Assembly: GCA_000442015.1 (NCBI GenBank)
Contig: KE561370.1
Coordinates: 1 to 60,809 of the forward strand
Reading direction: 5' to 3'
DNA: 60,809 nucleotides
Origin: Rozella allomycis CSF55
Lineage: Eukaryota
Position numbers and translations under genes: made by a program. The stretch's first letter is position 1. Each line of letters opens with the position of its first letter. Below, piece after piece: positions 1,051 to 60,809 of the stretch. The notes under the pieces were generated by a model that searched no databases, was not told the DNA's origin, and was given only the letters and a program-made list of their open reading frames with translations.

Positions 1051-1072
1051 CCTGCATTGATTTCTTGATGAN

Positions 1073-3402
1073 TCACAAAATCCACTTTAATAACTGATAT
1101 TCTAGATTTACACAATCAAGATCAAATACAAGCATTAATTGGCCCTGGTTTGTCTAGCTTCAGCGTTATTTCTTCCTTAATATTACAAAACTATAACATT
1201 CCAATATGCTGTGGTGCTTCCACTTCTCCAGAACTCGCAAACAAGATTCAGTATCCAAATTTCTTTCGAACAGTTCCAAATGATAATTTTCAAGCAACAG
1301 CTATAGCCAGCTTTGTGAAAAGTAATGGTTGGAACTCTGTTGCTATTATCGCTTTGAATGACGATTATGGCCAAGGTTTAACAAACAAATTTATGCAAGT
1401 AGCCAGAGATCTTGACATTGAAGTATTGGTAAGGACATCATTCTACGAAAATGATTTGGTTGATGGTCCTAAAAAGGCGGTTGATTTAGTAAAAGAAAGT
1501 GATGCCAGAGTGGTTTTGTTTTTTGGGTTTAGCACAGAAATTGTCTCGGTGATTTTATATGCAAAGCAAGTTGGTGTTTATTCCAGAGGATTTGTATGGA
1601 TTTGCTCAGAGGGCGTAGCAATCGACTATAATCGTCTTTCTAGTGAATCGAAAAAGTTAATTCAGGGAACATTGATTTTTCTGCCAAAAGAAGGGCAAGG
1701 GCCAGAATATGATCGAATGATAACATCTTATCAAGATTCAATATTAAACACAACTTCTCCTTATAGGTTGAATAATACCTTATCCATCCCAATGCCATTT
1801 TCAATGAATTATGCTTCTTGCTTGGATCTTCTTGTTCGCGGTATTGACAGAGTATATATAGCACAGGCTAATGCGTCTTTGGATGCACTTACTAATGGGA
1901 CATATCAGGCGAAACTTAAAGTCCCATCTTCGTTTCAATTTGATAATACAGTCATAACACCAACTGGTCATGTCTCATTAGATTGGAACGGTGAAAGAAT
2001 TGGCGAGTATTCTATTTACAACGCAGGTGAAACTGATATTGTTGATGTTGCCACATGGAGTAATGGAAACGTAATACTAAGCGGGGAATTGATTACTTAT
2101 CCAGGTGGTTCAACAGCTAAACCTTTAGGAAGAATTGATCCATCTGAATTGGCTGGTTACGTTTCTTCAACAGATGGGTTTGGGGTTTTGTCATTGGCTT
2201 TGGGCATAATAGGGATTGTATTAGTCACAGTAGTCATTCTGCTATTTATTAAATACAGGAAGCATAAATTACTGGTAAGTTCAAGTTTCCATGTAAGCAT
2301 ATTCTTATTGTCAGTTCTCTATTTGAACTTTTTGCAACTTATTATTATGCCTGGAATACCAACAAGTTCATTCTGTAAAGCGGACACGACACTTTTGGTA
2401 TTGTCCTTTTCTCTATTTTATGGGAACTTGATTGCAAAAAGTGTTCGATTGTATAAAATATTTTATGTCATAAAGACGAATGGCGGAAACAAATGGACAG
2501 ATAGGAAAGTAATCTTATTTGGTTCTTTGTTTGCTATGATAAACATTATTTTAATCATTATTTGGAATACTATAGACAATCCTAGTCCTATGATCTTAAA
2601 AAGACCGGGTACTAAAGACTATTTTTGGACATGCAGAAGTCAGTCAGCCTCATTCCAGTCAACAATGTTGACAACCATCCTTTTGTATTGTGGTATTATT
2701 CTTCTTGGAAACTTGATGATGGCTGTAAAAACTCGTGGAATTCCTTCAAAGTTTCAAGAAACAAAAACTATTGGATTATCAGTTTATAATTTAGCAATTG
2801 TTCTCATATTTGCCATCCCAACTTTAGTTAGTCAAAGTCTTGATTATCAATCAGCATTTGCTATAAAGGTTATAGTCATCGCCTACTGTTCCTTTTTTAA
2901 TCTTTTCACCATGTTCCTTCATAAATTGTTCTTAATATACTCGAACACTTATAGCAGTGGTACAAGCACAAAAGGTGCACAGAGTGAAAATGTAGAGTCC
3001 AAAATGGCACAAGAAGAAATTGGCAGGATGTACAAATCTTTTAGCAAAGTTTCCCTGAAAATCACATCAGGTTTTTCGATGTTTAATGAGTATCGTTTGT
3101 TTGCACTGATCTTGAATCAAGATAGTAAAAGCATTTATCTGATGCCTTTCATGCGAGCAACAGTTGAAGATCAATTGCAGTCATCTGGCCATTGTACGGC
3201 ATGGGTTCTTCCAACGTTGAAGGTATTCACTTGTGCCAAGAACGAAGCGAGTCTTTCAGTAAATGTGGTAGTCGAGAGTACAAAATATCATATAAAGTTC
3301 AATGAAAAGGATCAATATCAGAATTGGGTTAATATATTTGAGCTTTGGCAGACCAAAGTGTCTACGGCTGATTCCTTTTCTACGAAATTATTGAATAAAT
3401 AA
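1073..3402 (+). CDS. Class C (glutamate/GABA-B-like) GPCR: Venus-flytrap domain + 7TM + PH-like tail; 5' end truncated by an N gap
   Basis: The frame is open from the N at 1072 (..ALIGPG..). VFT motifs STSPELANK.QYPNFFRT.PND and WNSVAII..DDYG; 7tm_3 motifs LIAKS.RLYKIF and KTRGIPSKFQETK.I. Confidence 0.9.
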
Positions 3403-10384: not shown

Positions 10385-10466
10385 TAGTGAGAGTGGGATT
10401 TGAACCCACGCCTCCGAAGAGATGAGAACTTGAGTCACACGCCTTAGACCGCTCGGCCATCTCACC
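10385..10466 (-). tRNA. tRNA-Leu(CAA)
   Basis: GGTGAGA..TGGCCGAGCGGTCTAAGGCG..CT-CAA-GT..long variable arm..GGTTCAAATCC..TCTCACT-A; 82 nt cloverleaf. Confidence 0.93.
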
Positions 10467-12643: not shown

Positions 12644-13415
12644 TTATTTAACAATTTTGTTCAACTTTAAATATTCAGTGAATTCATCTATAATAACTGG
12701 CCATGCGCCCATCGGATCGTAATTGGACAGGTCTTTATCTATTGTTTCGATGAAATCCAGTAAAAGGTTCCAAGAATCTCGCGAGATACTCTTTTTATGA
12801 TTTTCTCTGACAAATGTACACCAATGTTCCAGCCAGATAAACTTGTTCGGTAATAGTAATTCCCACAGAGCAAGTGCCATGTCCAAACTAAGACTCTTTT
12901 GGCCTTCTTCTCGGCCAAAGTCAAATGAAAATTTGTAAATGCCTTCGAAATCCGATTGATTTTCTAGCTGCCTTCTCATAGCTGGAAAAGCCTCTTTCAT
13001 TTGCTCTATTGTTTCGCATCCTTTTTCGGACCAGAACCTTAGAAAATCTTCTCTTTTAAATTCACACATTTTTTGTGCATGAATATTGTATGAGAATACT
13101 ATCATGACAACATCCATAGGATCTATTTCAAGGTCGTTACAGTACTTTTCAATTCCATCTGCGAGTATGGCGTCTTCTTCAGAATCTCTGTATGTATCGA
13201 AGAGCTTTTCTAACTTTGTAGTATCTATCTTGACTTTTTTAGGTTTTTCTGATGCGAAATATTCATTGACAGCAGCGTTGAGGTTCCAGTCAAAATTCTT
13301 CAAGTATTTACGAGCAACAGATTTGCTAAGTATTAAATAATAAATAAGAGTACTTGGCTTGGGTGATGCCGATAAATTCTTCGATTACTTCTCGCTCTTT
13401 TGCAGGAGTCTTCAT
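12644..13415 (-). CDS. DCN1: Defective in cullin neddylation protein 1 (UBA + PONY domain)
   Basis: WNLNAAVNEYF, DGIEKYCNDL.IDP, GQKSLSLDMA.ALW, ISRDSWNLLLDF, YDPMGAWPVIIDEF; one short 5' intron. Confidence 0.95.
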
Positions 13416-15738: not shown

Positions 15739-16620
15739 ATGAATTTGCTAGTCCTGCTATATCTATTATTTATTGTTAGAGCCAGCCCCATTTCTGAAAA
15801 CGATCTATTTAAAGATGTAAAAATGGTTCATACAACATCTGATTATGCCTACAAAAGTATCGTAAAGGATCTCACTCTACGTGGGTCACCAGAGTGGAAA
15901 GTGCCTAAACTTGCTAACATCAAGCTCATTTGGACAATGGTATTGGAAAAAGGACATAGGCCTTGCTGTTCCAAAATTGGATCTCGTGGAATCGACGTGG
16001 CACAATTTCTAGCAAAGGATGAGGAATTGTTTATTTATCATGTCAACACCAATCTTGGATCTTACCATACCTTTCGTAATTATATATTAGTACGTGGGCC
16101 CCGCAGGATTCGTGACTTGAAGAAGCTCGGCGCAATTGAAGGCTATGATGTTCCTCTCTGGAGCTCATCTTCCGATGAATCTCTTTTGTCATTCTTTAGA
16201 AACGAAATGCAAAGAAAAGACGATATTCCAGATTCTCATGCCAACAAAAGACTTCATCTGCATTTGGCTATCGATGCCAATGAAATTCCATTGAATCTTG
16301 AGAAGTTGATTAAAACTGCAAGTATTGATGATAAGAAAATTATACTTGACATTCATCCCGAATCAAATAAAAAAGAAAAAGATGAAATCGATAACCTAAT
16401 GAGTGCAATGGAGAAGATTGATCTTAACAAAGTTAACAAACCCGATAACCAACTCGAATCTAAAGATTTAAAGGCTGAAACCTCAAACGAGCAAGAGGGA
16501 AATAATAATGAGGATAAGAAGGTCGAAATGGTAAACAGTTCTACCTCCACTCAACGCGGACTCTTAATGCGCAAAGTAGAAGGGCGTGAACATGAAGTTG
16601 AAACACCTAAAGAGCAATAA
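15739..16620 (+). CDS. Secreted lineage-specific protein (candidate effector)
   Basis: Signal peptide MNLLVLLYLLFIVRA|SP; intronless; paralog at ~19925-20525. Confidence 0.75.
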   Translation: MNLLVLLYLLFIVRASPISENDLFKDVKMVHTTSDYAYKSIVKDLTLRGSPEWKVPKLANIKLIWTMVLEKGHRPCCSKIGSRGIDVAQFLAKDEELFIYHVNTNLGSYHTFRNYILVRGPRRIRDLKKLGAIEGYDVPLWSSSSDESLLSFFRNEMQRKDDIPDSHANKRLHLHLAIDANEIPLNLEKLIKTASIDDKKIILDIHPESNKKEKDEIDNLMSAMEKIDLNKVNKPDNQLESKDLKAETSNEQEGNNNEDKKVEMVNSSTSTQRGLLMRKVEGREHEVETPKEQ

Positions 16621-19924: not shown

Positions 19925-20525
19925 ATGAAGTTAATAAAACATCACTTCGATTTTTATAGTATGTTGTACAGTTAACTGGAGCACTGTTGCAAATGATGAA
20001 AACCTGGAGTTAGGAATTCTATGACTTGGTTTATGGCAATAACAAGAATCTGAAATTTAAAATGGGTGATGACATATCCATCTCTCGAGAATCGCTATAT
20101 TCAAATCATAAAAAATACGTCAATACCAACCTGGGTTCAGTCCACAAATTTGCAAATTATATATTGATATTTGGGGATGAAAGGGTTCTTGCATTGGAGA
20201 AATTACGCGTCATTAAACCTTCTTGTAATCCTCCTTGGCTTTCTTCGTCCAGTGAATCGCTTTGGTTGTTCTTTGCACTTGAAAGGCAAAGAATAGAAAA
20301 TATTGAAGTTCCTGAATCTCATTCTAATGAAAGCCTTCATTTCCATTTAGCAATTGATGCGAAGAGATCCCATTGAATCTTGATACGCTAATTAAAACCA
20401 CGAGTATCTTCAATAAGAAAATCATTTTTGGTATTCATCCGGATTCAAATAAAGAAGAAGATGATATGGAAAATTTAATGTCTAGCATTGAGAAAATTGA
20501 TCTAAACAAGCCCACTAAAATGTAA
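19925..20525 (+). pseudogene. Frameshifted paralog of the secreted protein at 15739
   Basis: VNTNLGS.H.F.NYIL, SSSSESL..FF..E.QR, H.HLAIDA; a 1-nt frameshift near 20365, then EIPLNL..LIKT..IHP.SNK..NLMS..EKIDLNK. The signal peptide region is also frameshifted. Confidence 0.8.
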
Positions 20526-21054: not shown

Positions 21055-22034
21055 ATGACTAACATCCACCAAATACAAAAAGAGCAACGCGAAAAGATTG
21101 AAATAACAGTGAAACACCTACTTTCAGTTGTCCCTTCCAGTAGGATGCCCCAATTAGCTGTTATATGTGGGTCCGGTCTTTCCGGCTTGAGTGAGACGCT
21201 TAAAGAGCCCATTGTGTTAGACTACAAGACTATTCCAAACTTTTCAACCAACACAGGTAATTTCACGCTGTTAATGGTAGCCTAGTGGCTGGACATTCAG
21301 GAAAGCTAGTATTTGGGTTTCTGCAGAATATCCCTACGGTGTGTATGGTGGGACGCTTCCATTTCTATGAAGGACATTCGCTATTTAATGTGACCTTTCC
21401 TGTTAGAGTGTTTGCGAAACTCGGAGTTAAAGCTATGGTAGTGACCAATGCTGCTGGCGGGCTGAATCCCAACTTTAACACGGGTGACATTATGATCGTA
21501 AGAAATGTTATTTTGTTGAATTAGATAAAAGATCATATCAATATGCCGGGTTTGGCTGGAAATAATCCACTTATCGGTGTGAACCACGATGACTTTGGAC
21601 CAAGATTTCCTGCCTTGACAGATGCGTATGATGATGAAATGTCAAATATTATGCAACAATCAGCCAGAAAGTGTGGATTGACTTCGAATGTCATTAGATC
21701 GGGAGTGTATTGTTTTGTAGCTGGAGTAAAGGATTTGTGGTTTGTAGAGTAGCCTTCCTATGAAAGTAAAGCGGAAGCGAGAATGCTAAAAAGTTTTGGA
21801 GGAGATGCAGTGGGCATGTCAACTGTCCCGGAAGTCATTATTGCGAGACATTGTGGAATTCGAGTTGTTGGACTTTCTTTGATCACGAATAAAGTGATCA
21901 CCGAAGAAAAAAGTGATATTCCCAAACCTACACATGAAGAAGTATTGCAAGCGTCGCAAAATAGAGCTAGAGACATGCAAGGACTTGTTCATGAATTCGC
22001 CGGGCTATTAAAGACACAAACATTTATGATGTAA
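21055..22034 (+). CDS. PNP1: Purine nucleoside phosphorylase (trimeric type), 3 introns
   Basis: [61 protein letters not shown]. Confidence 0.97.
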
Positions 22035-22154
22035 TAAAGATCAATAGAATTTGTTATATTTTATATTTAAATACTTGATGATTTATTTAAGCCAGATAAT
22101 GATACAAAGAAGGGTCCTTTGTATCTCGCTTGAGATATTCTTTATCAATCAACG
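21729..22154 (+). repeat. Left copy of a ~400-bp direct repeat (PNP 3' end + shared 3' region + CUL4 tail)
   Basis: Aligns to 24620-24987; 22028-22154 is identical to 24861-24987 (127 bp). Confidence 0.95.
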
Positions 22155-22189
22155 GTGCAGTTATAGAACATCCCGTTGAATTAATAGCT

Positions 22190-24565
22190 TTAAATTCTTT
22201 TTAATCTTTGATAATAGGCATCCCCATAAAATGAAATGAGTTCTGGATTGCAAACGACAGCCATTTTGCTTGGTAGAGCATCATCCATCTTAAATGACCT
22301 ATCTGTGCGACATAGCATGACAAACACAAAGTCGGTTCCCTGTAAATGCGTAGTAATGGCCTGGCGCACTTTTTGATATTCAGCATCAATTAAGTTATTG
22401 GCAACCAGGGATGGAAGTTGAGATGTTTTTATCTGGAAAGTAAGAAGCAATTTCGTAGAATCAGGATCATTTAATGAGACGTACGTAAAACAATCAAACG
22501 GAGCACCAGTCCCATTTACTACACAATCACCAACAGAAAATGATGGAGCCTCGGTTATTGGGTAGCGATATGTGATGCGTCTTAATCGAATTTTGTCAAT
22601 TGAGGGAATTATAATTTCAACTTCAGATGGTATATTGATTATAGCACCCCGAAAAAATTCATGAAGAGAAATGGTTTTATAACCAAGGCACGAATACAAA
22701 GACAAGCGAAACGCAACGTAAAATTGATTAAAAGTCTCCCATTCTTGCCATCCGATATCCTTCCCAATTAAAATCTGGCTCCACAAATTTGCATATGAAT
22801 TTCCTTTTGCTCGACAAATGTGACACCAGGCAAAAATAAATGGCACTTTAACATAATACGTAAAATCATTTCTTGGCTCCAACTTTAAAAGTCCCAATGC
22901 TTCGAGATCACGAAAAGTAACATTATTTTCAACAATGGCGTGACGGTCCACTTCAATAGACAAAAATGAATACGCGATTGCCTTGGTAAACCCAGGAGTA
23001 TGCAATCTATATCTTTTGTTAATTTCAGATCGCACTTGTTGACTAATAATTTCCCAACTATTATTCATATAGTTATTTGATGTCAGGAGGGCATTGTATA
23101 GAAATTCAAAGGCGCGGCAATGACCTCCGACATCGGATATTATTTGCTTCAGTTCTCTGCCTATTGTTAAATCTGGAATTTTATATTTAAGTATACGTTC
23201 ACAAGACGTTAATGAAAGTAAAGGCAGGGGAATGTGGCATGGTGGATACATCGAATCAGTAACGATTTCGGATATCGGACCGATCACTGTTCCTGACAAA
23301 ACAGGGACAAAAAATACATCACCGGTGCCAGCCGAGGTAGTCCCAGCCCACGCAAACAATTCTCTGAATTTTATGGTGTTAAAATTATGTACCCTATTAA
23401 CCTCATCAAAGCACATGACTATGCAAGTCGTTTTCTGCCCCAATGCACTAATTAAATCACTCAACGTAAATTCTATATGGGGCCTATGTGCTAAAAATAA
23501 ACTAAAGAATTTGTAAGTGTCTTGAATTTCATATAAGATCCTTGATAGAATAATGTCTTCAATCATATTATTGGAATCTGCTGCACAAAACGCAGTATCG
23601 TTTCCAAAATTGATATTAATAAATACCGCCTTTAACAAAGCCTCTTTAAAGTTTTCTGTTTCATGCGATTCATTTAGAAATTGTTTATAAGAACTCGAGA
23701 GCTCCTGAAGAAACCTAGATTTGCCACTGCCGGGACCATCTGCAACAAACGGAATTGGGTGATGTCCCTTGTCTCTAGAACCTTTCACCCAGGCATTATA
23801 ACGTTGAGCCAAACAACTAGTCAAAACCCTAAACGAACGTTCGCGATCACAAAAAGGAAAATCTTTTCCGCTTGTATCCAACAATTCTGTAGATTTGCGT
23901 GCCATTAATGCTTTGACTACGTCGTCCAAGTGAACCTCTGCTTTGATCTTACTTTTCAAAACGCGAGACTGTGGAAACATTGCCAACAATGACGCCAAAA
24001 CTAAAATACGTTCGTTAGCATACAATTACTTTTATGATAATTATCGTCACCATCTATTAGACGAAGAAGCACAATCAAATGCTCCTCTTTCCAAGGGTAG
24101 GACCGGATTATTTCACCGGAAAGATGTTGGGCTAGTTGAGAATATAATTGTCGAGGCAGAGCATTTTTAAGCTCTTGTTCTTTTATGTTAGTTTCAAACT
24201 CCACTCTATCACCTTCAATCTTCATTAAAAGTAATGCAACATTTCGCATCAACGATTTATCAAGATTAGTAGCATCTAGATTTGCGCAGAACGTAGAGAA
24301 AAATGTGTCATGGGAAATTAGGGGCTTTACCAAAGCAATTGTGTCATTACACACGGATTCGCCATAAGCCGAAAGCATATTTTTGAGTCTGTGTTCTATG
24401 ATTTACGTTCCAAAAGAACAAATTACCGTACAAAATAAAACTACCCAAGCGGAAATCAGTACCAACTGAAATATTGAAGGAATGAAATGAAATATCATGG
24501 TCCAAGGTTTTAATTTCTTTGATGACCTTCAACAAGCTCTTACTTTTACGCGATGGACTCGACAT
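22190..24565 (-). CDS. Crinkler/RHS-type protein: P-loop NTPase + C-terminal PD-(D/E)xK nuclease-like domain (~771 aa, 2 introns)
   Basis: Walker A DGPGSGKS, Walker B MCFDEV, DVGGHCRAFE, WQEWETF, NGTGAPFD..FQIK. Removing introns 24396-24426 and 24001-24029 joins three ORFs in frame. Confidence 0.8.
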
Positions 24566-24619
24566 TTACCAGGGTGTCTTAGCCTAAACCTAAAAATAGT
24601 TTAATTTAATATTAACTTC

Positions 24620-24987
24620 AAGGATTTTTATTTTTAGAGACTAGAGTAGCCTTTTTATGAAATTGAAGCGGCAGCAAGAATACTGAAAAGTTATGCAGTC
24701 CCAGAAGTCATTATTGCGAGACAAGACAATGAGGAATTCGACTTTGATTACGAATAACGTGATCATCGAGGAGAAGAGTGATATTCCAAGAAGTATTGCA
24801 AGCGTTGCAAAATAGACCTAGAGATAAGAGACATGGGCTATTAAGGACACAAACATTTACGATGTAATAAAGATCAATAGAATTTGTTATATTTTATATT
24901 TAAATACTTGATGATTTATTTAAGCCAGATAATGATACAAAGAAGGGTCCTTTGTATCTCGCTTGAGATATTCTTTATCAATCAACG
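24620..24987 (+). repeat. Right copy of the direct repeat (decayed PNP 3' end, intact CUL4 tail)
   Basis: Eroded match to the last PNP intron and exon (tagagtagcc..gaagtcattattgcgagaca..aagtattgcaagcg), then 127 bp of perfect identity. Confidence 0.95.
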
Positions 24988-27327
24988 ATTCGATTCTCTT
25001 TTTAACATTGCTTGCATTTAATGGAAACTTTAGCATTTCAAACAGAGTTGTTGAAAGTTCAGTGTGTGATAAACTCTTTCTAGTCTTCATGATCCTAACA
25101 ATGGCAGCATCGATCTACAAGATAAACAAAAAAATTATTTACTAAGAATTGCCTATCCTGAATAACTTTTTCATTTGTTTCTTGCTGTTCTTGTACAGAT
25201 TCTTTTATTTGAATTGTGTTAATTCGAACTCTGTAATGAGCAGTTTGAAATTTCTCGTTTATTTTGAATTTATCAGATAGTTTGAACTCGATTGATTTAT
25301 CTTCAGGATTCGCTTTCATTCTAATTAATATTCTTGGTTTACAAGAACATAACGATTGGACTTGACGAATCAGTTCATTTTGTTCAATTCCCGTAGCCAC
25401 CTGAATTTGTTCTAAACTTAAAGTTTCGTTTTCATTAAACAATAGAATAACGAGGGATTGAAATAGAGAGACAATTAATTCTTTTGGCCCTAATGGAAAA
25501 TCAGCTTTAATGATGCAAGTCGACATTGAGTTTTCCCACTTTAGTTTTCTTCCATTATATTTATTTAAATAAAAATCTTTAAATATTTCTTGACTTTCAA
25601 TCATCTAATTTTAAATTTACAAAATAGATTACGTTTTTTGGAAGTTTGCATTCAGATGAAGGGTAAGTGGGCCATGTTCCAAATGACAAGACTGAAACAT
25701 TTATATCAGATGAAGCTTTAATCTTTTCAGAATACATGCGATTTTCTTTAAAGGAGGCCATAATGTCACTGGAAATGTCCATATCTTTAAACATTCCCTC
25801 CAATTTGCTTGTAAATTCTGCGCCACATTCTAATTGCTTGGCCACTAGATCTCTTACCAAGCCTCAATTTCATAATAACAGATTTTTCAACATCGATAGA
25901 TGCGCTTTTTCCAAGCAACAATCGTTTAGCCAAATCCTTTTTATAAAAGCCTTCAAAGATATCTTTCCCTTGCACAAATCTAAACAAAGTTAATGCATTA
26001 TCCAATTGAGTCTCATCATACTCTTTGCTTCTCAATAATTTATCAACAAATTTAGCGATTAGCTCAGCAGGTTTATTTTGCCTTAAATTGATAAAATATT
26101 CAAATGAATCTTTTGTTGCCAAATTAAATGAAACGTTGGATTGAAATGATGAAGAAACAATTTTCACAAGATATTCGTGGAATTGAATCAGCAGCAAAAC
26201 TAATTCATTATCTTTAGAAGGATCGCACACAATACTCTCGCCTTTCTGTTTTATAAATTTAGAAAATTCATTCTTCAACACATCAGTCAGATTTACTCTG
26301 TTGTAAATATCATAAATTGACTTTAATGTTTCCAATTCTTTATTTTTCAAAATATAAATAAAATCTTCTCCCAATCTCTCGGCTGCTTTATTTACAATCA
26401 TCTCATCTTCTACAATTTTAATTAGTTGAGTTTTGCTGCTTTCAATTAAATATTTTTCTACACGAGTTTGTTCATTTTCAAGATATTTCCAAATCACTGA
26501 TGCATACTTTTTAAGTGGAATGGCTTTATTGTCAGTCGCTTGTTTCTTATAAAATACGCGTGTTTCTATTAGTAACTTCTTTTCAAAATGAGAATAATAC
26601 AAATTCAAATCAAAAAACATTGTAACAACACCCTTCAACAATGACACATCTACAATAAAGCCACCTCTATAATCTCACGAGCGAATTTAAATTTACCTTT
26701 CGTATTGAATAGCTTGAATTATGTCATTAATAGAATTATTTAAAATGTTTCCACTTTCAACTACATTCTTTCTAAACATGTCTAACCCCATATCCCTATT
26801 ATATTCATCAATCAAATTTACCATAAAGAGTTTGGTCCTTCATTCAAATGAAGAACATACGATCTATCCAAATACAAAAATATCGACCTGATCATTGTCA
26901 TCTGTCTACAATACGTATCCCAAACACTCTTCAATTTTGTCAAAAAATCTACAGCGTTTCTAATAACCTACAAAACAAGAATTTACGTATCAATAGTTGC
27001 ACACAAAGATTTCGTATGCATCTCCACTTCAGTCATCAACTTTGCATACAATATTTTAGAATACTTTGGCGTGCAAAGAACTTCACATCCCTACATACCA
27101 ATAAACACACAACCAAACCTTATACAGCTCTTCCAAATTATACGGAATAGGTTTATGCTCATATATAGCATGTACAGCCTGCTTCAGCATCTTCCATGTA
27201 TCTTCTTCAAATGTCTCTGGCAGCGGAGGTGGGGCTATTCTCAATACTCGACACTCTTACGTTTAAAATTGCGGATCGTCAGCTTTCTTACTTTCTTATC
27301 GACTATAGGCGAAAAACGGGACATCAT
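24920..27327 (-). CDS. CUL4: Cullin-4, spliced
   Basis: N-terminal KLTIRNFK, RQNKPAELIAKFVD, GKDIFEGFYKKDLAKRLLLGKSAS.D.EK, FTSKLEGMFKDM, KELIVSLFQ, DAAIVRIMKTRK, IESLIDKEYLKRD...Y.YLA. Confidence 0.93.
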
Positions 27328-27611
27328 CGTTGTTTCTGAATTTCAAAAATTTCGTCGCCTTACCTGATATCTTAATTCTTTTAAAGGCTTGGGACATGAA
27401 AGACTAAAAGTCCGAATTTTACAACAGCAAAAAGAATTTTGACGGCATTTGGAATGTAATTGCAAACAAAATCGAAACACTTTATATTATATAAACTCAA
27501 TAACGATGCAACTAAGTCAGTTGCTACATGTTTTAAAATAGAATTTTTGTTTTAATTAGTTTTATTTAAGATTTAGTCAAAAACAGATTATTGAACATCT
27601 TTAAAAGGAGT

Positions 27612-27645: not shown

Positions 27646-28050
27646 TTACAATTCTTGAGATTGAGATCCAGCATTGTCTGACTTGCTCTTCTTTGGAACA
27701 AGAACTTCATGGATATTTGGAAGAACACCACCAGCAGCAATTGTAACGTTTCCAAGGAGCTTGTTCAATTCTTCATCGTTCCTGATTGCAAGTTGAAGAT
27801 GTCTTGGAACAATACGAGATTTCTTGTTGTCACGAGCTGCATTTCCAGCCAATTCAAGAATTTCAGCAGTCAAGTATTCCAAAACTGCAGCCAGGTAAAC
27901 AGGTGCTCCAGCACCGACACGTTGAGCATAGTTTCCTTTACGAAGAAATCTGTGGACACGACCAACTGGAAATTGAAGTCCTGCCTTTGATGAACGAGAT
28001 GTTGCTTTTGTTGCTGATGAAGCTGCTTTTCCGCCTTTTCCTCCTGCCAT
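27646..28050 (-). CDS. H2A: Histone H2A with C-terminal SQEL (H2A.X-type motif)
   Basis: [30 protein letters not shown]..; intronless. Confidence 0.99.
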
Positions 28051-28080
28051 ATTGAGATGAGGGTGGGTAGAAAGTCATCT

Positions 28081-28300
28081 ATATATATGTATTTTTCCCG
28101 CCAAAATTATTGATTTTTTGACAGCCAATCAGAACACAGGACCCATGTTTTTTGACAAAGATAAGTGTTTAAATAAAAAATCCGAAGGGATATTATAAAA
28201 TAATATTTTTTAAATAATATTTGCATTTTGTAGACTCTCTTTAAGTGACGACTGACAGTTCGCAATTTTGGCGGGAGAATTTTCGAAAAACATATAAATA
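28081..28300. promoter_or_regulatory. Bidirectional histone promoter: two inverted E2F-like sites, CCAAT box, TATA-like boxes
   Basis: AATTTTGGCGGGA on the minus strand at 28096-28108 and on the plus strand at 28264-28276; AGCCAATCAG at 28123-28132; TATAAATA at 28293-28300 and TATATATA near 28081. Confidence 0.75.
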
Positions 28301-28336
28301 CCCGACCCTTCCTTCCAAGCCCCATTCACACTAGTA

Positions 28337-28720
28337 ATGTCTACCGTTTCAAAAGCTGAAAAGAAACCTGCAGGAAAAGCTCCAGTAAAGGCTACCTCCG
28401 TCAAAGCTAAGCCTGACGCTGGAAAGAGAAAAAAGACCCGTCACGAAACTTATGGTTCCTACATTTACAAAGTTTTGAAGCAAGTTCACCCTGAAATCGG
28501 TATCTCCAACAAGGCTATGGCAATTATGAACTCATTTGTTAATGATATTTTTGAACGTATTGCATCAGAAGCATCAAAACTAGCTTCATACAACAAGAAA
28601 ACAACATTGTCTTCTCGTGAAGTTCAAACTGCTGTTCGTTTGTTGCTTCCAGGTGAATTGTCAAAACACGCAGTTTCAGAAGGAACCAAAGCTGTTACCA
28701 AATATACTGGTGCAAAATAA
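28337..28720 (+). CDS. H2B: Histone H2B
   Basis: [43 protein letters not shown]; intronless. Confidence 0.99.
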
Positions 28721-46162: not shown

Positions 46163-46234
46163 TCTTCGTTAGTACAGAGGTGAGTATCTCCGCCTGTCAC
46201 GCGGAAGACCGGGGTTCGATTCCCCGACGAAGAG
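46163..46234 (+). tRNA. tRNA-Asp(GTC)
   Basis: TCTTCGT..CT-GTC-AC..GGTTCGATTCC..ACGAAGA-G; 72 nt, followed by TTTT. Confidence 0.95.
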
Positions 46235-56388: not shown

Positions 56389-56544
56389 GGGTAACGCAGG
56401 GGATTCCCTAAGCCACATAGAGACAAAGAAATGAATACATTTGTCTGTAAAAAATATATTTCAGATGAAAATATTTTTATACAAAGATCACAAAAGTAGA
56501 CTTGAACCATACAAAAGGGGCAACGGCGGGGGTTCCTGTAACAA

Positions 56545-57252
56545 ATGTTGTTCTACATCCTCGCTCTATTTATTGGTTTGTCTGTATGTGACGATGGAAA
56601 TCCTTTCCAGATGCCTCCTGGGCTAACGATAAGAAAATGTCGTCAAAAGGGCACAGTTGCAATTACAATCGACGATGGGCCCAAAGGAGGCATGATTCCG
56701 GTTCTCAAGTTGCTTGACAAGAAGGAATATCGCTCTCACAAAGTCACCTTTTTCGTTACAGGCAAATCAATGGATGAAATGGGCAAGAACGATTCAACTT
56801 TTCTCATGAAAATGGCACTCAGAAGGGGGCATGAAGTAGGACACCATTCTTACGAGCACAAAAGCTACGTTGATCTATCTCACGATGAAATGAAAGCGGA
56901 TTTTCTAAAGATGGATGCCAAGCTGGGTAAAATCAAGGGCACTTCAAAGATATTCAGGCCGCCTTATGGGTACATCAAACAATCAGTTTTCGATTTCATA
57001 AGAAGCCAAAATTACCATATTATTGGATGGACGCAAGATACCAACGATTGGAAATACTACGACAAGGATGATTATGTGCAGAAAGTGATGAAAGAACTGA
57101 ATGAAGAGGTGAAGAAAAAGTCGATTGTGTTGATGCATGACAATGACGCCAAGTCTGCTGAGGTTCTTGAAAAGATTTTGAAGTTGGTCGACAAGGCGGG
57201 CTATAAATCTACAACTGTTTCGAAATGTCTTGGAATTGACAAGGAAAAATAA
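56545..57252 (+). CDS. Secreted CE4 polysaccharide (chitin) deacetylase
   Basis: Signal peptide; TIDDGP, HSYEH, RPPYG, DTNDW, LMHD. Confidence 0.95.
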
Positions 57253-57458
57253 AATCTGTTTAAATTTATCCATTATTCCATTTTGTTCATTCCGATAAAA
57301 AACGTAAAGATCTAATCATATATACCGATGACAGGTCCTTCCTTTACAATTAGCAATATCAAATCCCTGCCACTGTCACACCTCCAAGTACATCCCATAA
57401 TTTGACATGCTACGACACCCACCTTTAAAACCCACCCATCATCTATAAATAGCCCAAA

Positions 57459-58154
57459 ATGTTCCTCCCCAACCATCTCCTCCTCCTCCTCATTCTCCCA
57501 CTAGCCACCACGCAAACATTCCTGCCGCTTGGCCTCACAATCCGCCGCTGCCAGCACCCCAAAACGGTCGCCATAACCATCGACGACGGACCGTCTTCTG
57601 GCATGTCCCCAATCCTCGCCCTCCTGCAGCAGTACCGCCCACACAAGGTAACCTTCTTCGTAACCGGCCAATCTCTCGCCACCACATCAAATTCCACAGA
57701 TCTTGTCCGCACAGCGATCCGCCGCGGGCACGAGATCGGGCACCACTCGTACGCACACGGCAACTATGTAACGATGGCGGATGACGATATGCGTGCTGAT
57801 TTTATGAAAATGGATGCTGTTTTGAAGGGGATCAGGGGAACGTCGAGGCTTTTTAGACCGCCGTATGGAGAGATTGATAGAAGAGTGTTTGAGTTTGTGA
57901 GGAGTAAAAAGTACCATGTTGTTGGATGGTCGATGGATACGAATGACTGGAAGTATTATGAGCAGAGTGATTATTTGGGAAAGGTGATGGAAGAGCTTGG
58001 AGGCAGGGCAAAGTCAAAGTCGATTGTGTTGATGCATGATAGAGATGAAAAGTCGGCGGAAGTGTTGAAGGAGATATTGGAGTTGGTGATAAAGACTGGC
58101 TATAAAGCGACGACTGTTTCTAAATGTCTTGGAATCAACATGAAAAACAAGTAG
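57459..58154 (+). CDS. Secreted CE4 polysaccharide (chitin) deacetylase, tandem paralog
   Basis: Signal peptide; TIDDGP, HSYAH, RPPYG, DTNDW, LMHD. Confidence 0.95.
   Translation: MFLPNHLLLLLILPLATTQTFLPLGLTIRRCQHPKTVAITIDDGPSSGMSPILALLQQYRPHKVTFFVTGQSLATTSNSTDLVRTAIRRGHEIGHHSYAHGNYVTMADDDMRADFMKMDAVLKGIRGTSRLFRPPYGEIDRRVFEFVRSKKYHVVGWSMDTNDWKYYEQSDYLGKVMEELGGRAKSKSIVLMHDRDEKSAEVLKEILELVIKTGYKATTVSKCLGINMKNK

Positions 58155-58276: not shown

Positions 58277-60809
<2,533 letters not shown>

Follow-up and report, generated by a model that had tools for sequence, protein, structure and literature searches.

The Crinkler/RHS-type (CR) gene on contig KE561370.1 of Rozella allomycis CSF55 is flanked, in the assembly, by two copies of the tail-to-tail junction between the genes for purine nucleoside phosphorylase (PNP) and a cullin-4-like protein (CUL4), and the two orphan gene ends that accompany it have decayed to very different extents. 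Our tentative explanation, to which we give somewhat less than even weight, is that this duplication was left behind when breaks in the host DNA were repaired, in two steps of different age, rather than being a target-site duplication made by a transposase. The analysis concerns one locus, read from the assembly sequence; "the window" denotes the whole stretch of 60,809 nucleotides that was analysed.

Layout of the locus

A sequence-only reading of this DNA had proposed that the PNP/CUL4 junction occurs twice around an insert of about 2.45 kb holding only the Crinkler-like gene, that the flanking duplication derives from the target, and that both host genes are intact, all of which agrees with the features in Table 1. 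The two copies (the right one spanning 24620-24987, 368 bp) give the top of five self-matches when the window is compared with itself by blastn (21745-22154 against 24642-24987, E = 5e-93), and the 127-nt block that they share is the only exact repeat of at least 33 nt in the window. Apart from the 2,376-bp CR coding span, the insert has 35 nt on the 3' side and 54 nt on the 5' side; it is thus almost nothing but coding sequence, without other mobile genes, between long (>30 bp), unique, target-derived direct repeats. Its ends match one another over at most 7 nt in inverted and at most 6 nt in direct orientation, so that neither the terminal inverted repeats (TIRs) nor the defined ends of Class II transposons are seen, and several near-identical genome copies, a further trait of that class, were not found at the protein level or in the window DNA. 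Homology beyond the junctions is not significant, either to the right of 22154 (p = 0.2-0.36) or to the left of 24620 (p = 0.57-0.77); a candidate extension of CUL4 homology into 22155-22190 was rejected on the former values. Elsewhere in the window there are other local duplicates (16042-16430 and 20119-20509; 56932-57248 and 57831-58147), and the Rfam matches are two tRNAs only, distant from the locus.

Table 1. Positions of host genes, junction copies and CR gene features in the window
Feature	Position	Strand	Remarks
PNP (purine nucleoside phosphorylase)	21055-22034	+	intact, 298 aa; PF01048
Left junction copy	21729-22154		426 bp; end of PNP intron 3, PNP exon 4, 52 nt between the genes, final 68 nt of CUL4
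127-nt exact block, left	22028-22154		letter-identical to 24861-24987
Orphan CUL4 tail, left copy	22087-22154	-	22 codons including stop, undecayed
Unique insert	22155-24619		2,465 bp
CR (Crinkler/RHS-type) gene	22190-24565	-	771 aa; public model ROZALSC1DRAFT_26724, 694 aa
PD-(D/E)xK-like (REase-fold) domain	22193-22618	-	predicted; D at 22493-22495, QxK at 22427-22435
STAND/ORC-Cdc6-like AAA+ NTPase	22781-23893	-	helical/winged-helix extension; Walker A 23717-23737, Walker B DE
CR intron	24001-24029	-	29 nt, GT-AG, common to both gene models
N-terminal header region	24031-24393	-	no recognised family
CR probable first intron	24396-24426	-	31 nt, GT-AG, 771-aa model
Decayed PNP tail, right copy	24620-24867	+	directly upstream of CR start
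127-nt exact block, right	24861-24987		intergenic piece and functional CUL4 tail, stop 24920-24922
Cullin-4-like gene	24920-27330	-	apparently intact, 5' end not fixed

The four PNP exons (21055-21256, 21286-21497, 21525-21725 and 21753-22034) are separated by three GT-AG introns of 27-29 nt, and the spliced frame is open throughout; PNP has a single Rozella match, P0183. Splicing of intron 3 at 21726-21752 restores the GPSYE motif, which all 11 of the named fungal PNPs compared contain, and the repeat therefore does begin within an intron. The upstream end of the right copy likewise resembles PNP intron 3, not the end of exon 3. The right-hand gene is cullin-4-like by its best PDB matches (CUL4A/B, E = 1e-49, versus 5e-24 for CUL3); its neddylation domain is complete in Pfam, to position 63 of 63, and an open frame of 670-740 aa can be built with 7-8 short introns, which is a weak test.

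The exons of the 771-aa CR model lie at 24427-24565, 24030-24395 and 22190-24000. The public model has its first intron at 24276-24350 instead of 24396-24426, the latter being the sole frame-keeping candidate of three first introns from the ATG at 24565. Either model has two GT-AG introns, as the sequence-only reading had it, and these, together with the PNP intron 3 sequence carried in the repeat, support its claim of a DNA-level event; a processed retrocopy is rejected on the same two grounds, the introns of the CR gene foremost. The GC3 of the gene (0.33) falls inside the range of seven in-frame neighbours (0.27-0.38; an eighth, read out of frame, was left aside) and thus does not point to a recent foreign origin. 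Between 22030 and 22200 the minus strand has a single AATAAA, which sits in the left CUL4 orphan; this orphan probably serves as the 3' end signal of the CR gene, and the decayed PNP tail, directly upstream of the CR start, probably holds a putative CR promoter.

The CR protein and its suggested self-mobility

Structure models and residue conservation support the assignment of the protein as a CR NTPase with a REase-like domain, that is, an AAA+ ATPase joined to a PD-(D/E)xK-like predicted nuclease. The NTPase model (pLDDT 90.5) matches 2qen in VIA with Z 17.7 (rmsd 4.5, 290 aligned) and Cdc6/Orc1 2qby with Z 12.8, and Foldseek returns ORC/Cdc6/CED-4 at E of about 1e-7; the Walker A lysine is kept in 41 of 43 homologs and the Walker B aspartate in all 43. 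For the REase-like domain (pLDDT 92.0) the top VIA match is 1y88 (Z 7.2, rmsd 3.0, 94 aligned; MspJI follows with Z 6.1), below the VIA caution level of 8, with PD-(D/E)xK-type nucleases making up most of the top 20 rows. The top three Foldseek matches are MspJI (E 1.4-2.7e-3), and the catalytic-type residues are retained in nearly all of the same number of homologs (D 42/43, Q 40/43, K 40/43). PDB sequence searches with two alignments found nothing for the CR core, the matches of one alignment being HhH tails of distant relatives.

The protein carries the UniRef label Crinkler (CRN) family. Pfam finds nothing for exon 1, exon 2, the whole public model or the 611-aa CR ORF, and lists neither a Crinkler/Ubl (PF20147) header nor, with it, the Ubl header and LxLFLAK motif of classical CRN effectors; PADLOC finds none. 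The header has no relative among 181 fetched homologs and gives no more than weak, low-recognition matches in Atlas; a SAM-like reading of it was rejected, a two-sequence profile having found nothing. Among relatives, Pfam places a Crinkler header on 2 of 43 and 8 of 50 N-termini (two samples) and ankyrin on 1 of 50, the others being unassigned; N-termini are thus swapped, in keeping with the variable headers of CR proteins. In a quick-method tree of 43 rows the protein groups with the other Rozella paralog and two further proteins (SH-aLRT 99). The nearest same-strain paralog is only 43% identical and the protein cluster has one member, so that at the protein level there is no recent or close donor paralog. 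Searches for relatives in prokaryotic genomes gave 106 pattern matches, none confirmed, and those in plasmids and phages gave none.

One reading of these properties is that the CR gene is a self-mobilising element, its nuclease cutting about 425 bp apart and so producing a long target-site duplication in one step. The Walker A/B and D...QxK residues are intact, the insert is compact, CR NTPase-REase modules have been reported to be linked to transposable elements in prokaryotes (PMC5289972), and two ATPases that act in transposition, TnsC (Z 12.1) and MuB (Z 11.1), are among the fold relatives of the NTPase. However, the latter rank below archaeal ATPase, NLR and ORC matches in VIA, the insert lacks element ends, the closest paralog in the strain is distant, and no strand-transfer enzyme was found. 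Neither fold search, with the NTPase and REase-like regions folded, has an integrase-type domain among its matches, and DDE, HUH and tyrosine-recombinase domains are likewise missing from the Pfam and fold lists, although absence from a list is not exclusion. PD-(D/E)xK enzymes cut DNA and are not known to join it. With the unequal decay described below also standing against it, we regard self-mobility as highly improbable.

Unequal decay of the two orphans

The decayed PNP end of the right copy, which the sequence-only reading had recognised, is substituted at 23 of 212 coding sites (15 nonsynonymous) and carries six deletions and three insertions, whereas the left intergenic piece and CUL4 orphan differ at 0 of 120 nt (Fisher p = 2.4e-5; for the CUL4 tail alone, 0/68, p = 1.8e-3). 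That reading had noticed the CUL4 orphan, which is indeed present, but missed that it has not decayed: identity is exact over 127 nt, and an event-free gap of this length among 36 uniformly placed events has a chance of 7.5e-5. One staggered cut followed by neutral decay predicts equal decay of the orphans and cannot explain this pattern; the earlier suggestion of a single event through widely staggered cuts by the gene's own nuclease is therefore unsupported in that form. The deletions in the PNP tail show 0-2 nt of microhomology and are uninformative.

Two steps of repair would account for the asymmetry. In the first, old step, PNP intron 3 would have become fused to the 5' end of the CR gene, so that a PNP tail lacking a promoter was left beside the working CUL4. 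This tail would then have drifted to about 11% substitutions and nine indels, tolerable since PNP either survived on other chromosome copies or had been duplicated by the same event. In the second, recent step, an intact PNP-CUL4 junction would have served as the template for repair synthesis, which copied the end of PNP, the intergenic piece and then 68 nt of CUL4 before being joined 35 nt behind the CR stop; the left copy would accordingly be young and match the working CUL4 end exactly. Such an arrangement would persist since neither PNP nor CUL4 is damaged and the two orphans would supply the CR gene with a 3' signal and upstream DNA. The nuclease of the CR gene might conceivably have caused the breaks. 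R. allomycis has been reported to be triploid, with shared heterozygous SNPs (PMC6784888), so that intact templates and shelter exist.

Besides the asymmetric decay, the lack of significant homology past either junction, of TIRs and of a recent paralog all favour the two-step account, and repair is known to produce duplication together with templated insertion (PMC7025897). On the other hand, it requires two rare events at one locus. If the template was an allele, drift would be expected to have made the alleles differ in the intergenic piece and at the seven four-fold sites of the CUL4 tail, barring a recent exchange on the CUL4 side as well. The mismatches at 22012 and 22027, moreover, fall in the last indel-free block of 153 nt and also fit a conversion tract.

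This last point bears on a doubtful but still sizeable alternative, in which the whole 426-bp target duplication arose in a single repair event that took in the CR gene as a templated insert, and gene conversion from the working CUL4 end followed. Conversion, aided by selection to preserve the left copy as 3' signal of the CR gene, would keep the last 127-153 nt identical, while indels would isolate the PNP orphan from it. This requires the fewest events, the duplication covers both stop codons and leaves the host genes whole, as in bacterial restriction-modification (RM) insertions, and its size fits the top of the RM range (417/423, 384/412, 388/397 and 368/393 bp; PMC2853133 Table 3). High identity starts directly after the last deletion (21987-22001), and the only AATAAA downstream of the CR stop on its strand lies in the left copy. 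The uniform divergence of both repeat copies that marks a single event was not observed, although later conversion could restore the one-event reading. In toy simulations of one event, the asymmetric pattern, in which the PNP part decays and the rest stays unchanged, arose in none of 2,358 runs without conversion and in 10 of 5,209 with it, at best 1 in 64; here conversion tracts stop at indels and are steady and short, with no single late long tract. Even at half the mutation rate, to allow for selection, P is about 0.002 for 0/120, a value slightly off in that the indel rate was too high (nine events divided by 282 instead of 306 nt). Identity also extends right up to the junction's final base, a position at which conversion would have no distal homology.

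A local origin would likewise yield two junctions of different age. A block that began in PNP intron 3, included CUL4 and ended with a CR gene lying to its right would have been duplicated in tandem; later the first CUL4 copy would have been largely deleted and the CR gene of the second block lost, the CR gene having moved only locally. No distant donor is needed, which fits the absence of a close paralog, and the window does have other local duplicates. However, it contains no CR remnant elsewhere (tblastn to E = 1; blastn), and an extra clean loss is required; we consider this history very unlikely.

The linear layout could also be an assembly path through the 127-nt exact block, here called R. 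An integrated copy gives the graph PNP-R-insert-R-CUL4, but so does an empty site accompanied by a free circle of 2,833 bp, a tandem array or a mosaic of triploid haplotypes; R exceeds the k of 21, 33 and 55 used in the single-cell assembly of this strain, has no exact rival in the window, and the strain is polyploid. Nevertheless, such a graph can hold both junctions only if both occur in real molecules, 4078-60809 is free of N, the CR and PNP proteins are each found unchanged on two contigs (possibly not independent assemblies), and collapse would hardly erase a divergence of 7-11%, a shared 55-mer being kept in 2-11% of trials. We judge this to be unlikely. The value 127 is a common assembler k, but the single-cell assembly used the k values above, and its agreement with the repeat length is taken to be a coincidence.

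Comparison with known systems

In the part of Zhang et al. (2016) relayed by PMC5289972, CR proteins comprise a variable header, a STAND/ORC-like P-loop NTPase, a helical region and a REase-fold domain. The Rozella member has the same order of NTPase, helical region and REase but no Ubl/LFLAK header. The literature searched contained no description of flanking target duplications for this family. For the multiplication and movement of Crinkler-type genes, hitch-hiking on helitrons and TIR elements has been proposed, whereas self-mobility has been suggested by domain ancestry only: the Crinkler-like AACRNL genes of teleosts spread on hAT/mariner elements (PMC12957317) and Phytophthora CRNs are helitron-associated (PMC5289972). 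In contrast to both, the insert described here has no such element or TIR.

Transposed Arabidopsis genes also have flanking direct repeats, for which circle excision and reintegration was proposed (Woodhouse et al. 2010, PMC2869330), and wtf drivers lie between 5S rDNA repeats (PMC9562144). These resemble the CR locus as members of fast-turnover families between target-homologous direct repeats. There, however, the repeat usually pre-exists at donor and target, whereas here it is single-copy housekeeping sequence, and at least one illegitimate junction is therefore needed. Cycles of templated insertions, in which insertion of a distant segment accompanies re-replication of a host segment (Li et al. 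2020, PMC7025897), give the same A-X-A topology by template switching, but these are somatic cancer events with both copies of the same age, unlike the differently decayed copies at the CR locus. The locus provides a compact, datable scar in single-copy housekeeping sequence; if it alone shows a long flanking duplication, it is an ordinary repair scar.

The closest precedent, by analogy, is the insertion of bacterial RM genes with target duplications of up to 423 bp, attributed to double-strand breakage (Furuta et al. 2010, PMC2853133; also Nobusato et al. 2000, as cited there). In both cases a lone nuclease gene lies between long, unique, target-derived direct repeats without other mobile genes, and the RM repeats often cover start or stop codons, so that host genes survive. 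The CR locus differs in being eukaryotic and intron-bearing, in lacking a methyltransferase, in having an empty site inferred from two copies only, and in having one decayed and one identical end where RM repeats are 86-100% identical throughout. It is a long shot that CR NTPase-REase genes act in eukaryotes like selfish RM cassettes, through nuclease breaks, repair insertion with long target duplications and repeat-driven cycling. If they did, recombination between the 127-nt copies would free a 2,833-bp circle with the whole CR gene, its borrowed promoter and 3' signal, and leave an intact PNP-CUL4 site; the circle could re-enter empty alleles of the polyploid nucleus, cycling itself would hold the 127-nt block identical, and CR genes would have a homing-like, transposase-free route. 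The size and gene-sparing layout of the CR locus are the same as those of bacterial RM insertions.

Duplicated PNP/CUL4 junction and host genes

In a blastn comparison of the window with itself, the tail-to-tail PNP/CUL4 junction is present twice, once on either side of the Crinkler/RHS-type NTPase-nuclease gene (CR gene). This match is the strongest of 5 self-hits (E=5e-93) and bears out the ~400-bp flanking duplication described in the sequence-only reading. Pfam identifies PNP (PF01048) on one side of the CR gene and a cullin (PF00888, PF10557) on the other; the best solved relatives of the cullin are CUL4A/B (E=1e-49; CUL3, 5e-24). The assembly sequence contains no N near the locus.

After splicing, PNP has an open frame of 298 aa. 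Intron 3, as placed in the table, restores a GPS(Y/F)E motif present in 11/11 named fungal PNPs, and the resulting model outscores the public one against all 11/11; the public model (P0183, 301 aa) appears to be mis-spliced at this intron, with loss of the conserved GPSYE motif. The start of the right copy resembles PNP intron 3 and not the preceding exon, and was therefore copied from unspliced DNA, confirming the proposal of a DNA-level event with PNP intron sequence inside the repeat. CUL4 has a normal end at 24920, and a frame that stays open over its full length can be constructed, a weak test; with the open PNP frame, this agrees with the claim that both host genes are intact. Because AATAAA overlaps the stop codons of both genes, the sequence suggests that their 3' UTRs are very short and lie inside the 52-nt intergenic piece.

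Features of the locus and of the surrounding window
Feature	Position	Strand	Evidence or remark
Left junction copy	21729-22154		blastn self-comparison
Right junction copy	24620-24987		blastn self-comparison
PNP intron 3	21726-21752	+	
AATAAA at PNP stop	22032-22038	+	
AATAAA at CUL4 stop	22082-22089	-	
Identical 127-nt block, left copy	22028-22154		
CR gene ORF	22190-24025	-	
CR start, public model	24378	-	
CR start (ATG), alternative model	24565	-	
Class C GPCR-like ORF	1072-3402	+	ANF_receptor + 7tm_3; 776 aa, no introns in that stretch
tRNA gene	10385-10466	-	Rfam
tRNA gene	46163-46234	+	Rfam
DCN1-like gene	12644-13384	-	UBA + Cullin_binding
293-aa protein	15739-16620	+	hydrophobic N-terminus; no Pfam family
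Paralog of 293-aa protein	20116-20519	+	frameshifted near 20362
Divergent histone pair	27646-28720		H2A on minus, another core histone on plus
Polysaccharide deacetylase	56542-57252	+	chitin-type
Polysaccharide deacetylase	57453-58154	+	chitin-type
Low-GC stretch	59001-60000		GC 21.6%, strong skew; in ORFs 58527-59822 (-) without curated Pfam match

Elsewhere in the window, the 293-aa protein and its paralog 4 kb downstream, directly ahead of PNP (55-68% protein identity), make up a second local duplication with decay, without a CR gene. The deacetylases form a tandem pair (DNA 71% identical). The DCN1-like gene, a cullin neddylation factor, lies ~12 kb from CUL4, probably by chance, and the two tRNA genes are the only Rfam matches in the window.

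The CR gene and its protein family

The insert comprises 2,465 bp: a coding span of 2,376, 35 nt past the stop and 54 nt ahead of the ATG. Its ORF is 100% identical to ROZALSC1DRAFT_26724 (Rozella allomycis CSF55), found on 2 contigs. Two GT-AG introns occur in either gene model, as first described. The public model removes a 75-nt 'intron' that is in frame and stop-free; the alternative, longer model has a 31-nt intron and seems to fit better with the surrounding introns of 27-31 nt. The sole minus-strand AATAAA beyond the CR stop sits in the duplicated CUL4 end, so the gene may use signals borrowed from flanking duplicated DNA.

Among 50%-identity representatives, phmmer returned 424 relatives at E<=0.001; those with names belong to Rozella, chytrids and Mortierellaceae. 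In Atlas, the neighbouring clusters are eukaryotic, and Crinkler makes up 45% of one. The 611-aa ORF model (pLDDT 90.5) matches STAND/ORC-type AAA+ ATPases, with 2qen at the top (Z 17.7, rmsd 4.5, 290 aligned) and further matches to NLR resistosomes (Z 15.9-13), Cdc6/Orc1 (12.8), TnsC (12.1) and MuB (11.1); Foldseek agrees. Folded alone, the last 142 residues (pLDDT 92.0) give modest matches, mostly to PD-(D/E)xK nucleases (Z 7.2 for AF1548, 6.1 for MspJI, 5.1 for FokI; Foldseek E=1.4e-3 for MspJI). The CR protein carries the conserved Walker A K (41/43) and Walker B D (43/43) and the nuclease-type residues D (42/43), Q and K (40/43 each). Headers of relatives vary, the Pfam Crinkler header occurring in 2/43 and 8/50 scanned. 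Together, folds, residues and varied headers indicate that the protein fits the CR NTPase+REase class summarised in PMC5289972, with predicted activity, and uphold the original assignment of Crinkler-like NTPase plus restriction-endonuclease-like domains. Its own header has no match in Pfam, Atlas or relatives, and a classical LFLAK-header CRN was rejected on this ground. In a distant family branch (8/50 scanned: P0049, P0088, P0120, P0127, P0143, P0153, P0170, P0176), a ComEA-like helix-hairpin-helix DNA-binding domain is appended at the C-terminus, which supports DNA as the family's target.

Unequal age of the orphans and origin of the locus

The two orphans, the PNP tail on the right and the CUL4 tail on the left, differ in age, a point missed in the sequence-only reading. 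In PNP exon 4, 23/212 aligned sites differ between copies (15 nonsynonymous, 8 synonymous; 3 fall at codon position 1, 8 at position 2 and 12 at position 3), and the PNP part of the repeat has 6 deletions and 3 insertions, a pattern that points to neutral decay of the right copy. The next 127 nt, spanning the intergenic piece and the entire left CUL4 orphan, are identical (0/120 versus 23/212, Fisher p=2.4e-5; p=1.8e-3 using the 68-nt CUL4 tail alone); a 127-nt gap among 36 events placed uniformly has P=7.5e-5. Similarity just past either junction is weak and not significant. The originally proposed one-step insertion, through staggered cuts by the gene's own nuclease, conflicts with this divergence, which includes indels on one side, and is highly improbable. 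Local tandem duplication followed by loss is improbable.

We tentatively favour host DNA repair in two steps of different age. In the old step, the 5' end of the CR gene would have been joined to PNP intron 3, orphaning the PNP tail; in the recent step, a templated copy of an intact PNP-CUL4 junction would have been joined beyond the CR stop. We infer the repair pathway and a role for ploidy; CSF55 has been reported as triploid, with heterozygous SNPs common to different libraries (PMC6784888). Against this reading, two events are needed at one site, and the simulation is crude. This toy forward model of one event (16 parameter sets) gave the pattern in 0/2,358 decayed runs without conversion and in 10/5,209 with steady short-tract conversion. 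The latter count weighs against a single event with long target duplication followed by conversion and selection, which we consider unlikely but credible: the identity block starts only a short way from the last deletion, which conversion would predict, and this counts against the two-step reading.

The block is the sole exact repeat of at least 33 nt in the window and exceeds k=21/33/55, so an integrated copy, an empty site plus a 2,833-bp circle and a tandem array would give one graph; that the linear layout is merely one assembly path among these seems rather improbable. Restriction-modification (RM)-like selfish cycling through that circle and empty alleles is a long shot. Protein-level tests, and flanks from 1 locus, gave no sign of self-mobility. 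There is no terminal inverted repeat, since the two ends of the insert share inverted matches of 7 nt at most, and no second copy within the window. The protein's cluster has one member, the next same-strain paralog being 43% identical; 3,328 candidates yielded 7 matches, none named Rozella, and no closer short fragment. No relative occurs in the prokaryotic genomes, plasmids or phages searched.

Comparison with known systems

The structure is real, the family member ordinary and the scar of a known kind. When RM genes insert in bacteria, they are described as duplicating long stretches of the target (the largest being 417/423, 384/412, 388/397 and 368/393 bp); these duplications often span start/stop codons and are ascribed to double-strand breakage (PMC2853133; Nobusato 2000 cited there). 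Crinkler-like genes have been reported riding hAT/mariner elements (PMC12957317) and helitrons (PMC5289972); among the open-access papers listed for Crinkler genes and for Rozella, we found no report of such a flanking duplication at a CR gene. Genic direct repeats often flank transposed Arabidopsis genes (PMC2869330), and 5S rDNA repeats lie on both sides of wtf drivers (PMC9562144). Tandem duplications can reportedly arise from paired nicks. Cycles of templated insertions reported in cancer genomes have the same topology as the CR locus (PMC7025897).
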